This document shows positions 94-7,187 of a DNA stretch of 7,583 bases, one piece after another. The notes under the pieces were generated by a model, which was not told where the DNA came from, ran no database searches, and saw only the letters and a program-made list of their open reading frames with translations. Source of the DNA: Promethearchaeota archaeon (lineage in GTDB: Archaea > Asgardarchaeota > Thorarchaeia > Thorarchaeales > Thorarchaeaceae). Each line of letters starts with the position of its first letter. Position 1 is the first letter of the stretch. The position numbers and the translations under genes were made by a program. The DNA is taken from positions 1 to 7,583 of the forward strand of contig JALVPN010000014.1 of the NCBI GenBank assembly GCA_027031765.1, in the 5' to 3' direction.

Positions 94-528
94 TCATACC
101 AGGACCCATGCCAGGAGGAACCAGTAGGCCCCGAGGAGGAGTGCAACAGTCCAGAGGCCGATGGTGGCGAACATGAGCTTTCTGGTCTTGCGGAGCAGGC
201 GGAGGGGGAGTCCCCGGTTCAAGAGGAAGAGCACAACCAGGGAGGTGCCCATGGCGAGCGCAAGTGTGCCCACTGTGTCGTGTGCGAGCTGGTACCAGTT
301 CACGAGGGGGCTGCTGAGGGCGAGCCCTATGCGTTCGAATGCTCTTGGGACCATCCACAGGGACACGATGATGAGGTGGACTGCGATGACTGTGTTCACA
401 GCCCAGTGGTGGGTCTTGAACTCCATCCTCCTGGACCCGAGCAGCCAGCCTGTAAGGAGGACTGCTGCGGTTACCACTTCGCTCACCAGTACGATGAGGG
501 AGAAGGGGACTCCCACGGACTCCTGCAC
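94..528 (-). CDS. Small 4-TM membrane protein, DUF420/cytochrome b561-like (possible heme b binding)
   Basis: 144 aa with four hydrophobic segments. His at H40/H41 (RRMEFKTHHW, start of TM2), H51 and H83 (YQLAHDTVG, TM3). GTG start at 528 with GGAGG 9 nt upstream; TGA stop. The gene is well supported; the family call is by resemblance only. Confidence 0.7.
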   Translation of the reverse strand: MQESVGVPFSLIVLVSEVVTAAVLLTGWLLGSRRMEFKTHHWAVNTVIAVHLIIVSLWMVPRAFERIGLALSSPLVNWYQLAHDTVGTLALAMGTSLVVLFLLNRGLPLRLLRKTRKLMFATIGLWTVALLLGAYWFLLAWVLV

Positions 529-537
529 TGCACTTGG

Positions 538-544
538 CCTCCTC
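538..544 (-). promoter_or_regulatory. Shine-Dalgarno-like site GAGGAGG for the 94..528 gene
   Basis: The minus strand reads TAA-GAGGAGG-CCAAGTGCA-GTG. The motif lies directly after the stop of the upstream gene and 9 nt before the GTG at 528, which suggests co-transcription. Confidence 0.65.
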
Positions 545-1264
545 TTACATCCTGATTGTTGTCACACTGCCCCTGGTGGTGAACGTGCTCTTGTCTGGGG
601 AGGCTGCCCGCTGTCTATGTGCAGCGACGATTGCCGCACCGATCATCCCCCACGGGCAGAACCTTACCTCAAGGTTTCGATATGCCTCCGAGTCATGGAT
701 TTCCGAAAAAGCGCAGCCATTGACCGCGACTGTGACCTCGTCCTGACGGACTTTCACGCGGGAATACGTGACGAACCCGCGCCTCCTCAGGTATTCTGCA
801 AGACCCCTGAGCTTCTGGTCCAGTGGCACATCCGGGTCCAGGAGCTGCTCGGGCAGGTATGCCACAAGGATGTCAGCCATTCGGGTGAACACGTAGTCCT
901 TGATGGCTGCGTCTCCAAGCACCTCGATGAACGCACTCTCGTAGCCGAAGATGGCCGCTCTCAGTTTCCAGACCTCTTCAGTGGTCAGGTCGCGAGTTGT
1001 ACCCTGCCTGTAGGCGTCCTCCACTCTCACCTTGAACTCGTCAATGAACTCCTTCAGCTGCTTGGTCAGGTCAGCCTCACCTGACAGACTTGAGAACACC
1101 TCCGGGAGAAACTCGCGAACATAGTGCACCATCTTTGGCAGCACGTGTCTGTCAAACATGTCGGGCCCGATGAGTTCCTTTCCCACCGACTCGTAGGCCT
1201 CAAGGATACCCATGTAGAGGAAGACTGCTGCGAGTTCTTCTCGGGACACGTCTCCGTGACTCAT
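545..1264 (-). CDS. V4R-like (V4R/MetOD1/Bet3-type fold) protein with a duplicated N-terminal helical module
   Basis: ATG at 1264 (MSHGDV...) is preferred over the GTG at 1285; TAA stop. The C-terminal part (helix, G, beta-hairpin, VNGCAF..IH...FCPWG..GAAIV, terminal strands) matches the layout of V4R-type domains. Cys codons at 713-715 and 656-658, His at 695-697. Confidence 0.65.
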   Translation of the reverse strand: MSHGDVSREELAAVFLYMGILEAYESVGKELIGPDMFDRHVLPKMVHYVREFLPEVFSSLSGEADLTKQLKEFIDEFKVRVEDAYRQGTTRDLTTEEVWKLRAAIFGYESAFIEVLGDAAIKDYVFTRMADILVAYLPEQLLDPDVPLDQKLRGLAEYLRRRGFVTYSRVKVRQDEVTVAVNGCAFSEIHDSEAYRNLEVRFCPWGMIGAAIVAAHRQRAASPDKSTFTTRGSVTTIRM

Positions 1265-1307
1265 AGAGGACGGGACCCCCAGCACAGGAGTGCATCCGTG
1301 CCGCCCC

Positions 1308-1317
1308 TATAATATAT
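1308..1317 (-). promoter_or_regulatory. Candidate archaeal TATA box for the V4R-like gene
   Basis: An AT-only island (minus strand ATATATTATA) in GC-rich DNA, about 45-55 nt upstream of ATG 1264. Confidence 0.45.
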
Positions 1318-1375
1318 TGTGGGTCAGACATATTGTGGGTCAGGTGCATCTGAGATACGGTGCACTGTGGGTCAG
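1314..1375. repeat. Direct repeat ATATTGTGGGTCAG x2 plus a third TGTGGGTCAG core
   Basis: Exact 14-mers at 1314-1327 and 1330-1343. The 10-bp core occurs at 1318, 1334 and 1366 (spacings of 16 and 32). Confidence 0.85.
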
Positions 1376-2412
1376 GTATGTCTCAGGAGTCGCACAACAT
1401 AGCCGCTGTCCTGAGACTCGATGGCGACCTGATGAGGCACCTCACCTGGCACCACCGACACGAAGCTGTCCAGAGACCTCCGCGACAGCGACTTGGCAAG
1501 GTTCTCAAGGTTCTTGATCAGCGTGGACAGGAATACGTTGAGGCGGGTGATGAGCCTCTGCTCCCCCATCGAGAACCTTGGCCCGCTAGCTCCGACAATA
1601 CGGCCCGTGTTGTCTAGGCGCAGCACCCCGATCACCTCGCCGTCCTCTAGGGAGTGCTGCGGGCGCTGGGTTGCTCCCCCTCCACAGAGCCGCCTTGCCG
1701 CCTCAAAGACATCGGCCTGCGGAGTCGTGAGCGGACCAACGCTCACACCCACTACCGGACTGCAGTTCACTACTGCCACGGTGTAGTCCTTTACATTCAT
1801 GACGAAGCTCTCATACTCGTCCAGGATCCCCAGTGTCCTGAGACACCCAAGAAGGGATGCATGGACAAGGGCTGCGTCCCCTACCATATCCTTCTTGAAC
1901 AGTGGCCTGGGCCTTGAGAAGCTTGCAATCAGCTCCCCGTCTGGTACGCGGAACGCAAAACCCACGACCACCTTGCCCTCTTCTGCAATCCGTGCGATCT
2001 CCTCCTTGACCACTGCTTCCGGAGTGAACAGGGCCGCATTTATCCTGTCAATCTGTCTGCTCAGTCCCTCTTTTGACTCAGGGGAGAGCTGCTGGCCCCC
2101 TTTGGGGAACTGGACTCCCCCGACGACTTCCAGTATCCTCGACATCGCCTCACTGGCGTACTCCCTTGGTGCGGAACGCGCGAAGACGCCCACGAGGACC
2201 CGGTCGTCGGTTGGACAGCGAGCGTACAGGAAGTACTCGTTCTCTGTGAAGAACGACTGGAGTGCGTCCGCCCGTGTGTGGATGCTGAAGTCTTGGATTG
2301 CTGACAGCAGCCCGCCTGACAGCACCGCCCTGTCATCGTCCGCCATGGCTCTGTCAGCAGTGTAGTGGAAGAGGAGTATCCCTGAGTCCAGGACAAAAAC
2401 TTCCTTGAGCAT
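1372..2412 (-). CDS. Longin-domain protein with two further roadblock/longin-like domains
   Basis: 346 aa, ATG to TGA. The N-terminus (VFVLDSGILLFHY...D..VLSGGLLSAIQDFS...LQSF..EN..FLY...VLVGVF..helix) fits the Asgard-type longin pattern (beta-beta-alpha-beta-beta-beta-alpha). Two more similar units follow at aa ~131-243 and ~258-346. Confidence 0.7.
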   Translation of the reverse strand: MLKEVFVLDSGILLFHYTADRAMADDDRAVLSGGLLSAIQDFSIHTRADALQSFFTENEYFLYARCPTDDRVLVGVFARSAPREYASEAMSRILEVVGGVQFPKGGQQLSPESKEGLSRQIDRINAALFTPEAVVKEEIARIAEEGKVVVGFAFRVPDGELIASFSRPRPLFKKDMVGDAALVHASLLGCLRTLGILDEYESFVMNVKDYTVAVVNCSPVVGVSVGPLTTPQADVFEAARRLCGGGATQRPQHSLEDGEVIGVLRLDNTGRIVGASGPRFSMGEQRLITRLNVFLSTLIKNLENLAKSLSRRSLDSFVSVVPGEVPHQVAIESQDSGYVVRLLRHT

Positions 2413-2497: not shown

Positions 2498-3070
2498 ATG
2501 AGCCCTAGGTCTGCTGAGAGACATTCCGCTCACATAGTGTTCCTGTTCCTGGTTGTTGGACTGGCCCTGTTGCCCCCTGCTGCCCAGGCCCACACCCCCG
2601 AGTCCGTCACATTGGAATACGACTTTGACGACCAAGTACTCACTGTGCACGTCACACATCCGGTCTCTGACCCTACCACTCACTACATAGCGCGCATTGT
2701 GGTCGAGAAGAATGGCCAACAGGTGGCCAGCCGTGACTACACGAGTCAAGAGAGTTCCAGTGGCATGTCAGACACCTTCAACGTCCCAGCTGAGGACAGC
2801 GACGTGCTGAGAGCAACGGCCTTCTGCAGCATATCTGGCCAATCGTCTGCAGAGATAACGGTGCACGCACCAACAAGCACCACTACAACAACTACAGGTA
2901 CCACCACCACCACATCCACCAGCACTACGACCACAACAACAACTATGACGACGACCAACACGACCGTGACCCCCGCTCCCGGCCCCTCCGTGGAGTTGCT
3001 CCTTGTCGGGTCGGCTGCTGTGGCCGTGGTACTCGTCATTGCCGTACTGGTCCTGAGAACACGGCGCTGA
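2498..3070 (+). CDS. Exported, C-terminally membrane-anchored protein with a superoxide reductase/desulfoferrodoxin-like metal-binding pattern and a Thr-rich stalk
   Basis: ATG at 2498 gives a 31-aa signal peptide ending AQA|H. The mature domain reads HTP...THPVSDPTTHYI...ATAFCSISG, followed by a Thr-rich linker, a hydrophobic helix and a basic tail LRTRR; TGA stop. Confidence 0.75.
   Translation: MSPRSAERHSAHIVFLFLVVGLALLPPAAQAHTPESVTLEYDFDDQVLTVHVTHPVSDPTTHYIARIVVEKNGQQVASRDYTSQESSSGMSDTFNVPAEDSDVLRATAFCSISGQSSAEITVHAPTSTTTTTTGTTTTTSTSTTTTTTTMTTTNTTVTPAPGPSVELLLVGSAAVAVVLVIAVLVLRTRR
2873..2971 (+). repeat. Low-complexity Thr/Ser-rich coding linker
   Basis: 33 codons (TSTTTTTTGTTTTTSTSTTTTTTTMTTTNTTVT) using mixed ACA/ACC/ACT/ACG codons, so it is not a pure microsatellite. 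It contains an N-T-T sequon. Confidence 0.9.
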
Positions 3071-5500: not shown

Positions 5501-5711
5501 CTCTACTGTCCGTTTCCGTGGGCCTGCTGGTCAAAACCGTCCCGGGCAGAACGACACGATCCCCCCAGCTGGAGATGTCGGCCTGCACCCCCACGTGACC
5601 CTCCACAAGACCCACAGTCTACGTCTCGTGCTGCCCCTTCATCAGGCCCGTAGCATCAATACGACTGCAGCCGCTTTCCGATGGCCTGCTGCGTTGCAAG
5701 GTGGGTCTCAC

Positions 5712-6810
5712 ATGTCCTCCGGACACTGGGACTGGACCGGTAACGTGGTGGCACGGCACCCGCTCCTCGCCCTGGATAGGGGAACAATCTATGACCGGGT
5801 AGAGCGCACACGGTACTCCCACCGCACACTGGACGCAGGGCCGGACAGGACAGCCCATCTCCTTGCGTGCCTAGGAGTTGGCCGGGGCAACAGAGTAGCG
5901 GCCCTGTCAAAGAACCGTATCGACCGTATTGATGCATACCTGGGCGCCTCGAAGCCGGGTGCCGTGCTCGTGCCGCTGAACGCACATCTGGCCAACGTGA
6001 ACTGGAGCACGTGTCGAGAAGGCCTGGCCCAGAGTGTTGCTCTTCGACCCGCTCAGGGGTCAGAGTTTGACTTGCCGTACTCGGAGGTCTCGGGACACGA
6101 TGGTCCTGTCATGGGCGAGCACGATGTGCGCGACCACCACGTCACGCGTGCAGTGATACGCGACCAGCCGGCCTCGCCACCCGAACGCCCCATCATCTCC
6201 TTTGACGACCCGGAGCTCGTCCTGTTCATCAGTGACACGACAGGCGTCGCCAAAGGGGCAGTGCTCTCGCACAGACTCGTGTCCTAGAACGAGGTGGACA
6301 CGGTCCTGTAGTGGGGCCTACGTCCCGATGACGTCCAGCCGCTGCCCTTCCCACTGTTCCACACTACGGGTTGGAATGCCCTCACCCTGCCCTTCATCCA
6401 CCTGGGTGCGAAGACCGTGCTGATGGGTAACTTCGACCCCGAAGACTGCTTGCGGGTCGTCCCGTCCGAGAGGTGCACCACTGTGGTGGATGTGCCAACG
6501 ACGTTCCTCATGGTATCCCAGTCGGCGTCGTTCGCCAGGACCGGCCTCTCCTCCGTCCGGACGTTCGTCAGTGACGGCGCCCATGTCCCGTCTCGATCAT
6601 GGGAACGTACTGGGCCTGGGGGAAAGGCCTTCAAGATGGACTACGGCCTCACCGGGGTGAGCCCCAACAACTCCTACCGGCCGGAGGCCGACACCCGCAG
6701 GAAGCCCATATCCGTCGGCCTTCCAGTCCTCCACTGTGACCCTCGCGTCGTCGGTGATGACGTGGAGGAGCTGACAGAGTGCGGCCAGCAAGATACTGAG
6801 ACGCAAGCTT
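5712..6810 (+). pseudogene. Degraded long-chain acyl-CoA synthetase / AMP-binding (ANL, FadD/MenE-like) gene
   Basis: Decayed motifs are recognisable: RGNRVAALSKN, GAVLVPLN, FISDTTGVAKGAVLSH (from YTSGTTGxPKG), PLFHTTGWN, DYGLTG (from GYGLTE), SVGLP, and SKILRRKL (from GKILRR). In-frame TAG at 6285-6287 and 6309-6311, frameshifts at about 5995-6055, and the C-terminal block is missing. The end coordinate is approximate. Confidence 0.88.
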
Positions 6811-7030
6811 GGACGACCGTGCTTTCCGCCCTGTCGGTGCGCGTTGCCCCGGACCCGTGGTCGGAGCGTCTGGACATGCAGCCCCGGGGAGTACTACCCC
6901 GGAGTCGTGGCCGGGTCTGTGCGACCCGTAGTTCTGCCCCGGGGGCTGTCGACTGTGCTGTGGGCCCCGGACAACATTCATATCGTCTCGATACCTCTCT
7001 TCCACAGGTCCTGGGCCCGACAGTAGGTAG

Positions 7031-7045
7031 AGTCAGTCAGTCAGT
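7031..7045. repeat. Tetranucleotide microsatellite (AGTC)x3.75
   Basis: agtcagtcagtcagt in non-coding DNA. Confidence 0.6.
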
Positions 7046-7187
7046 AGCCGTGGGCGCGCATTGGACTCCGCGTGGGCAACAGCCCAGGAGAGTGTGCATA
7101 TCTGCTGGGTGGTGCTGACCGCACGTATGGGGCTGCTGCAAGACACGCGGGAATGGACACTGTACGTGGTCGGTGGTGACCGCTGCT

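Follow-up and report, generated by a model that had tools for sequence, protein, structure and literature searches.

A predicted surface-anchored superoxide reductase-like domain with a processed N-terminal histidine in a Thorarchaeal genome

The 7,583-nucleotide stretch of DNA analyzed here (the window; positions 1 to 7,583 of contig JALVPN010000014.1, assembly GCA_027031765.1, from a Thorarchaeal member of the Asgard archaea) carries on its forward strand the gene for a small surface protein, P0001, whose only globular domain is very probably an exported derivative of superoxide reductase (SOR). According to the open reading frame (ORF) list and its translation, the gene extends from an ATG at position 2498 to a TGA stop codon at 3068–3070 and encodes 190 aa; the start codons of its orthologues lie ~25–30 aa ahead of a conserved histidine, which is His32 in P0001. 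Judged from its sequence, P0001 appears to be Sec-exported and anchored in the membrane through its C-terminus, in agreement with the initial annotation of the locus, which had proposed an exported protein tethered on a threonine-rich stalk. The signal peptide (MSPRSAERHSAHIVFLFLVVGLALLPPAAQA) contains no twin-arginine motif and ends in AQA, and cleavage after this sequence would expose His32 as residue 1 of the mature protein. The SOR-like domain is followed by a stalk in which serine or threonine accounts for 29 of 34 residues (residues 125–158 counted) and which may be O-glycosylated, and then by the sequence APGPS, a 22-residue hydrophobic helix, and a terminal RTRR (Table 1).

Table 1. 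Coordinates of the SOR-like gene, of the elements of its product, and of the recurrent neighboring gene (residues are numbered from the ATG-encoded methionine)
Feature	Position in the window	Strand	Remarks
SOR-like surface-protein gene	2498..3070	+	ORF list and translation; alternative TTG start at 2447
Predicted Sec-type signal peptide, residues 1–31	2498..2590	+	R4 and R8 in the n-region, hydrophobic core, AQA at −3 to −1
SOR-like seven-stranded β-sandwich domain, residues 32–125	2591..2872	+	94 aa, begins HTP
His32, predicted mature residue 1	2591..2593	+	equivalent of the first iron-ligating His in SOR (EKHVP motif)
His54 (mature His23)	2657..2659	+	corresponds to the HP-motif ligand of SOR
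His62 (mature His31), HYI motif	2681..2683	+	corresponds to the third SOR ligand
Y81-T-S-Q84 loop, family-specific	2738..2749	+	flanked by model strands 43–49 and 58–64
C110-S-I-S113-G114	2825..2839	+	Cys corresponds to the axial Cys of SOR; Ser113 at the place of the fourth His
Thr/Ser-rich stalk, residues 126–159	2873..2974	+	sequence
C-terminal transmembrane anchor V165–L186 and basic tail RTRR	2990..3067	+	sequence
144-aa four-helix membrane protein (4-TM)	94..528	-	four His invariant among orthologues; a lead only, not an established partner

The way in which the domain is held at the membrane differs among the relatives of P0001. A hydrophobic C-terminal tail is found in 95 of 156 family members, and PGF-type tails, which suggest archaeosortase-dependent anchoring, occur in 20 (P0012, P0028, P0060, P0061, P0101, P0110, P0116, and others). 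Such PGF-CTERM sorting was rejected for P0001 itself, the tail of which has no PGF motif. The domain would thus be displayed in at least three anchoring modes, namely through a transmembrane (TM) helix, through PGF-CTERM, and through fusion to cytochrome b561, as described below.

Center II of SOR is an Fe(His)4(Cys) site, in which the iron is coordinated by four equatorial histidines and an axial cysteine (PMC3116461). P0001 keeps the order of the corresponding motifs (H-x-P, H-x7-HYI, and C-S-I-x-G); AQA followed by HTP, HP, HYI, and CSISG are all present as described in the initial annotation, with 21, 7, and 47 residues between His32 and His54, His54 and His62, and His62 and Cys110, respectively, and all four codons lie exactly where they had been placed (Cys110 at 2825–2827). 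The derivation from SOR that had been suggested for the domain is supported by profile and structure comparisons. The Pfam model PF01880 (Desulfoferrodox) matches the whole protein at 22.7 bits and the domain at 24.2 bits, narrowly above the cut-off of 22.2 (E-values of 5e-5 to 1.5e-4), and when 118 relatives were scanned one by one, 27 matched this model independently at E < 0.01 and nine matched SoxZ. Alignment of the family profile with 16 Asgard SORs by hhalign gave a modest score (E 3e-4, probability 40%), in a register that places His1 on His16 of the EKH motif of the genome's own SOR, HYI on HHI, and CSISG on CNIHG; with the genome's SOR as a single template, only the Cys motif was aligned. 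The AlphaFold2 model built from 118 homologues has seven strands and a pLDDT of 96.8, and Foldseek returned SOR structures first (4brj, 4bk8, 2ji2, and 1do6; E 4.5e-4 to 2e-3, TM-score 0.59–0.66), followed by SoxZ. Of these entries, 1DO6 is the Pyrococcus furiosus SOR and 4BK8 the Ignicoccus hospitalis SOR. The VIA Z value for SOR was 9.9, tied with generic FnIII domains, and that for SoxZ was higher, at 11.5. Fold geometry alone is therefore not diagnostic, and the relationship to SOR rests on the three in-register motifs together with the hidden Markov model matches.

A canonical 129-aa 1Fe-SOR with EKHVP, HP..HHI, and CNIHG motifs is encoded elsewhere in the same genome (L005:1480-1869; 99-bit match), and because this cytoplasmic enzyme is present, the P0001 gene would be a divergent paralogue rather than the housekeeping copy. 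SORs are considered to be cytoplasmic, or in rare cases Tat-exported, proteins that have an invariant Fe(His)4Cys site and rubredoxin-type electron donors. The family of P0001 resembles the 1Fe-SORs (neelaredoxins; PF01880) in its predicted immunoglobulin (Ig)-like β-sandwich, in having H-x-P, H-x(n)-H-[YH]-I, and C-[NS]-[IL]-x-G in the same order and register, in keeping three histidines and the axial cysteine, and in occurring in anaerobes. In contrast to SOR, the family has Ser, Gly, or Ala in the position of the fourth equatorial histidine and is Sec-exported and membrane-tethered instead of cytoplasmic; the loop between HYI and the cysteine comprises 47 residues in P0001 and 63 in SOR, and the YTSQ loop is specific to the family. 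The Glu–Lys pair that precedes the first histidine of SOR is also absent, since this histidine would be the mature N-terminus. Some natural SORs likewise lack one residue of the pair.

Two further known systems come close to the family. The TAT-SOR class of SORGOdb also consists of SOR domains predicted to act outside the cytoplasm (PMC3116461); these proteins, however, have a complete active site II and a twin-arginine signal, which implies folding and iron loading in the cytoplasm, whereas the family described here has a Sec-type signal and no fourth histidine, and its first histidine would be residue 1. In the Atlas, the TAT-SOR cluster has a TM-score of 0.70 to the domain, compared with 0.92–0.96 for the family's own clusters. 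SoxZ (PF08770; 1V8H, 2OX5), the partner of SoxY, has neither a conserved His3Cys cluster nor an N-terminal histidine, and no SoxY-like gene was seen at the loci examined.

The family is large and widely distributed. When 1.84 billion cluster representatives were searched exhaustively, 1081 homologous clusters at 50% identity were recovered with E ≤ 1e-3, and 229 with E ≤ 1e-10, and in nearly all of the matching clusters the alignment begins at residues 25–35, directly after the signal peptide. The closest homologues, which have an identical layout and a length of 142–172 aa, belong to Thorarchaeota and Promethearchaeia; the sources of the family comprise Thorarchaeota, Heimdallarchaeota, Thermoplasmatota, Omnitrophota, and Methanomicrobiales, and the Atlas clusters are dominated by Omnitrophota (1068 members), Thermodesulfobacteriota, and Methanobacteriota. 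Within the window's own phylum (Asgard), the gene was found in 51 of 201 sampled genomes, with one to three copies in each and two or three in several of them. The only functional names given in these sources are "hypothetical" and the automatic "desulfoferrodoxin family". One Thorarchaeote carries a tandem duplication (L007:5411-6574), in which the copies of 192 and 164 aa are separated by 90 bp. Elsewhere, giant surface proteins of 1270 aa (L013:5938-9750, in a Thermoplasmatales metagenome-assembled genome) and 1915 aa (P0156) begin with the domain as their N-terminal head.

Conservation was counted in an alignment of 158 family sequences. The initial annotation had asked whether the putative ligands are invariant, and this holds at ~99% for His54 (157/158), His62 (156/158), and Cys110 (156/158), but not for His32, in the column of which His is found in 140 sequences, Asn in 12, Asp in two, and Thr in two. 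Also conserved are Gln84 (156/158), Gly114 (154/158), Tyr81 (154/158), Pro34 (153/158), Tyr41 (149/158), Asn72 (147/158), and Asp102 (145/158). Position 113, where SOR has its fourth histidine, is occupied mainly by Ser (48), Gly (37), Ala (24), and Phe (15), and only P0059, with the sequence CSVHG, has a histidine there (1/158), so that the loss of this ligand, first remarked upon for P0001, extends across the family; P0059 is also a member with an adjoining b561 gene. His51 of the VHV sequence, which had been put forward as an alternative ligand, lies in a column with Thr in 93 of 158 sequences and can be set aside as not conserved, and Glu40 varies except among the nearest Thorarchaeota homologues, where it is invariant.

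The placement of the first histidine directly after the signal peptide is a property of the whole family. In a crude signal-peptide test, which asks for a hydrophobic core and for small residues at −3/−1 directly before the His/Asn column, 145 of the 147 members with a presequence of at least 15 aa show this arrangement, in keeping with the cleavage site earlier predicted in front of His32. Of the 158 sequences, 143 have Ala at position −1 and 127 have Val or Ala at −3. An RR-like motif of any kind is found in only 10 of the 147, which argues for export by Sec and not by Tat. As the first histidine falls exactly at the predicted mature N-terminus in ~90% of members, it can be argued that the free N-terminus matters. 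In a tree built without that column, at least three changes of His1 to Asn are forced by supported branches, and eight are counted by parsimony.

In the proposed site, His32, His54, His62, and Cys110 would represent three of the four equatorial histidines and the axial cysteine of the SOR center, and the most likely outcome is a mononuclear metal site with redox activity, located at one end of the sandwich. The order of the strands in the model suggests that His1, His23, His31, Tyr50, Gln53, Cys79, and Gly83 (mature numbering) would cluster at this end, and that Asn41 and Gly70–Asp71 would lie in hairpins at the opposite end. A redox-active metal site that uses the His/His/His/Cys set can be regarded as likely. 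The lost fourth histidine may be replaced by another group, for which the free α-amine of His1 and the invariant Gln84/Tyr81 loop are candidates; from the topology, the Y81-T-S-Q84 loop is predicted to reach the site end, where it could provide the fourth ligand or a second-sphere group. The α-amine, in turn, may act either as a ligand or as a replacement for the lost lysine, and its role as a direct ligand is put forward only tentatively. As for the metal, the balance tips slightly toward iron over copper, and mononuclear iron with SOR-like one-electron reduction is favored because of the ancestry of the domain, the retained axial cysteine, and the anaerobic host range.

The relatives of P0001 are repeatedly linked to cytochrome b561. 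Searches by phmmer, with the b561 neighbor of P0141 as query, found a C-terminal b561 domain in 18 of the 158 members (E 5e-30 to 6e-5), and a Pfam scan of nine fusions detected PF03188 in every one of them, with eight scoring above the cut-off and three that also contain DOMON. In the simplest architecture, the SOR-like domain is joined directly to b561 in a protein of ~230–280 aa, and in P0148 (266 aa) ~14 residues separate the SOR-like domain from the first b561 helix. P0032 (445 aa) has Big_7/Glucodextran_B Ig domains between the two, and in P0049, P0048, and P0138 (530–805 aa) the SOR-like domain is followed, in some after Big_7/Glucodextran_B Ig domains, by DOMON and b561. All four heme-ligand histidines are kept in 19 of 19 aligned b561 domains. 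The link also occurs between separate genes. The gene 76 bp upstream of P0059 is of the b561/DUF4079 type (PF03188 at 27.6 bits, cut-off 23), P0141 is followed after 6 bp by a gene for a 134-aa b561 with four His (26.7 bits), and in G131, a Thorarchaeote of the window's taxonomic family, a 121-aa b561-like gene lies 70 bp downstream of the SOR-like gene and on the same strand. The first row of the Atlas fold search is a 196-member archaeal cluster of 267-aa proteins, 68% with b561, which superimposes on the domain with a TM-score of 0.92 and a root-mean-square deviation of 1.5 Å, and a search for operon partners found that the neighbors vary between phyla and that only b561 recurs. Among the short stand-alone b561-like neighbors, those of 113 aa (L040:908-1249) and 121 aa (L053:3677-4042) are without the heme-ligand histidine of the first helix (W-P-x-H), a residue that every fused version and the 134-aa L044 protein possess; the outer heme site of these short proteins would be incomplete unless a partner provides the ligand.

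Proteins with b561 and DOMON–b561 modules carry electrons one at a time through the membrane to acceptors outside the cell (PMC10691727, PMC10784544), and the CYBDOM proteins have been identified as ferric reductases (PMC10784544, PMC10784552). The eukaryotic CYBDOM ferric reductases follow the same logic as the fusions described here, with an outside domain placed N-terminal to a four-His b561, sometimes via DOMON (PMC10784544), but in the present family the terminal extracellular module is the SOR-like metal domain. The repeated fusion to b561 is strong circumstantial evidence for a redox-active center in the SOR-like domain, and given the fusions and adjacent genes in other lineages, the domain is best read as the outward-facing terminal module of a transmembrane electron path.

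Electrons would flow outward along this path, and the most probable reaction, although at somewhat less than an even chance, is the reduction of superoxide or a related reactive oxygen species at the cell surface of anaerobes. P0001, which is not fused to b561 and ends in a single TM helix, would be the stand-alone tethered version in its organism. The only sample that matches the DNA is a hydrothermal-vent metagenome, its probable source, and no RNA dataset is listed; in hydrothermal-vent sediment, abiotic reductants are conceivable as the electron source. A more specific proposal, a "histidine-brace SOR" in which the α-amine of the N-terminal histidine completes the His3Cys site as ligand or as a stand-in for the lysine, and in which b561, with or without DOMON, wires the site to cytoplasmic reductant in many lineages, must be considered speculative and rather doubtful in its entirety.

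Several observations weigh against a SOR-derived redox center wired to b561. The NCBIfam SOR domain model TIGR00332 failed, with 20.5–22.6 bits (about 20–23) against a cut-off of 61.9, and the family profile retrieved no SOR from the PDB sequences, where the only matches were chance ones to PI3K-C2 at E 0.1. The site departs from the Fe(His)4Cys set that defines SOR, because three histidines and the cysteine are kept and the histidine of C-x2-H is Ser113, and the Glu–Lys that stands before the first histidine of SOR has no counterpart, the AQA found there being predicted to leave with the signal peptide. In 16 of the 158 members, among them three b561 fusions with Asn at position 1, His1 itself has given way to Asn, Asp, or Thr, and its imidazole is thus not strictly required. 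The window's genome, which is 95% complete, yielded no match to PF03188 and none to the Thorarchaeote b561-like protein. Across the Asgard genomes, the phyletic association is weak, with b561 in four of 51 that carry the SOR-like gene and in six of 150 that do not, and most members would accordingly work without that partner. Taken as a whole, an exported, SOR-derived redox metal domain is the best explanation, and one that we hold with a little more confidence than doubt.

The surroundings of the gene offer one further lead. The 4-TM protein shares 51% identity with the product of a gene that is divergently adjacent to the SOR-like gene in L002–L004, and its gene is the only recurrent neighbor of this particular SOR-like gene. 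Three arrangements are seen: the two genes are divergently adjacent in L002–L004, G134, and G098; they are separated by V4R-like and tri-longin-like genes in the window, L007, L008, G146, G081, G137, G116, and G194; and they are convergent in G200. The order 4-TM, V4R-like, tri-longin-like, SOR-like is shared by the window (94-2412, minus strand, for the first three) and L007, and by L008, where the 4-TM gene is cut by the contig end, while L009 has the V4R-like, tri-longin-like, and SOR-like genes and no 4-TM match in the available DNA. As the 4-TM and SOR-like genes are directly adjacent in L002–L004 and separated in the window and L007, the V4R/longin pair looks as if it had been inserted or lost as a unit. 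Apart from the window, the linkage is confined to a single genus-level group, and a 4-TM gene without an SOR-like gene occurs in 13 genomes; among 43 genomes of the taxonomic family, which as kin are not independent, both genes are present in 13, one or the other singly in eight and seven, and neither in 15.

The nature of the 4-TM protein was pursued by several comparisons. In the language-model features of the Atlas, it resembles clusters with DUF420 in 17–28% of their members (similarity 0.94). It has no Pfam match at E < 10, and a genome-wide search with PF04238 (DUF420/CtaM) does not recover it. It is not detectably a b561 protein, as hhalign against the family's b561 domains gave a probability of 0.4%. 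Its AlphaFold2 model has a pLDDT of 69.7, the Atlas fold search produced no meaningful match, and a complex prediction with mature P0001 scored 0.09, which counts neither for nor against an interaction. On the other side of the SOR-like gene, and convergent to it, lies a gene for a sensor histidine kinase of 789 aa (window:3246-5615, minus strand; four PAS domains, HisKA, and HATPase_c), which is not kept beside SOR-like homologues at other loci. It is followed by an AMP-binding (acyl-CoA-synthetase-like) gene on the plus strand (window:5595-7118) that is split into ORFs at 5595-6287 and 6417-7118; these cover positions 17–185 and 243–364 of the Pfam profile, and a frameshift, a pseudogene, or an assembly error may account for the split.

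The strongest alternative is that the domain belongs to a copper chaperone or cupro-enzyme acting outside the cytoplasm, in which the α-amine and Nδ of His1 would form a histidine-brace-like chelate together with His54 and/or His62 and Cys110, giving an architecture nearer to YcnI, CopC, or lytic polysaccharide monooxygenase (LPMO) than to an iron SOR. The layout of signal peptide, N-terminal histidine, Ig-like domain, and C-terminal TM helix is that of YcnI (PMC13344008). As in the His-brace copper proteins (LPMO, CopC, and YcnI/DUF1775), cleavage is predicted directly before a conserved histidine of a β-sandwich: the AQA–His junction of P0001 fits the −3/−1 rule, and the histidine stands exactly at the predicted cleavage site throughout the family. 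In the histidine brace, copper has a T-shaped N3 coordination, with the amine and Nδ of His1 and Nε of a second histidine as its ligands. Its recurrent replacement by Asn and Asp would also suit a copper site, as their side-chain oxygen would be isosteric with the histidine Nδ in a six-membered chelate with the amine. YcnI shares its C-terminal TM tether with P0001, and LPMO-type enzymes depend on external electron donors; b561 and DOMON modules, moreover, classically serve copper mono-oxygenases as partners. Export by Sec would mean that the metal is loaded outside the cell, where copper outcompetes iron in accordance with the Irving–Williams series.

The adjoining 4-TM protein is DUF420-like by its Atlas features, and DUF420/CtaM has been proposed as a copper exporter or reducer (PMC13344008), but this assignment has no Pfam support and the link is restricted to a single genus-level group, as described above. 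In Omnitrophota locus L017, a gene for a YHS-HMA heavy-metal P-type ATPase lies two genes downstream of the SOR-like gene, which also counts in favor of copper. An SPFH/Band-7 gene stands between the two (L017:5965-9816). No other locus examined showed a copper-type context, and genes for CopC, CopD, Sco, or further copper proteins do not recur beside the SOR-like gene there. The ancestor of the domain, furthermore, was an iron enzyme whose axial cysteine has been retained, and the hosts are anaerobes, mostly strict, of sulfidic or reduced habitats, in which copper is scarce. There is no detectable sequence or family relationship to the His-brace proteins, and we know of no conserved cysteine at the site in these proteins. 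A copper protein is a serious rival, though unlikely; the two roles that follow are less likely still.

A role in metal reduction or capture, in which the His/Cys site would transiently bind extracellular Fe(III) or Cu(II), reduce it with b561/DOMON electrons, and hand it over for uptake, has its parallels in Dcytb and in the CYBDOM ferric reductases (PMC10784544, PMC10784552 for CYBDOM) and would make sense of the b561 and DOMON–b561 fusions; one member of a fused cluster even bears the IMG name "iron-regulated membrane protein", although this is an automatic name only. A pre-organized site with at least four ligands including a cysteine, however, suggests a permanent cofactor, no transporter recurs beside the SOR-like gene at the loci examined, and under the anoxic conditions in which most hosts live, soluble iron is already present as Fe(II), so that this role appears improbable. 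Equally improbable is that the domain is an Ig-like surface module without catalytic function, whether as an adhesin, as a pseudo-enzyme, or as a carrier or partner protein like SoxZ, with His and Cys serving structure or a non-redox ligand. In its favor, SoxZ is matched by some of the relatives, the domain heads giant multi-Ig surface proteins, and the catalytic Lys, the Glu, and the fourth His of SOR are all gone. Against it stand the near-invariance of His54, His62, and Cys110 over more than 150 clusters otherwise 35–60% identical, the lack of a SoxY-like gene at the loci examined, and the repeated fusion to a di-heme cytochrome, which would be hard to explain for a module without redox activity.

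SORs, Tat-exported SORs with the full site (PMC3116461), b561/DOMON modules, and N-terminal-His metal sites are each already known. In the searchable literature, no Sec-exported, SOR-derived His3Cys family was found, nor a processed N-terminal histidine in such a family or its fusion to b561/DOMON, and SOR or desulfoferrodoxin is not combined there in a relevant way with b561, DOMON, or the histidine brace. With more than 1000 clusters, Sec export, surface display, a systematically altered ligand set, a putatively processed N-terminal histidine, and repeated fusion to a b-type cytochrome, the family departs from the established picture of SOR. If the SOR-derived domain is redox-active, it would represent a new type of metal site for bioinorganic chemistry, a His3Cys site assisted by the N-terminal amine or by Gln, and, if the connection holds, a prokaryotic partner for b561/DOMON modules, whose terminal acceptors are, to our knowledge, largely unknown.

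The consequences for the organisms themselves follow from the location of the domain. Superoxide cannot cross the membrane, and a redox-active domain on the surface would give anaerobes a dedicated route for spending cytoplasmic reducing power on oxidants outside the membrane. Should the "histidine-brace SOR" prove true, it would be the first transmembrane superoxide (or peroxide/O2) reductase system guarding the outer surface of anaerobes, Asgard archaea included. As the family is common in the Asgard genomes sampled, it matters for understanding the ways in which relatives of the eukaryotes deal with oxygen, and its relevance extends from bioinorganic chemistry to the oxygen tolerance of anaerobes and Asgard archaea.

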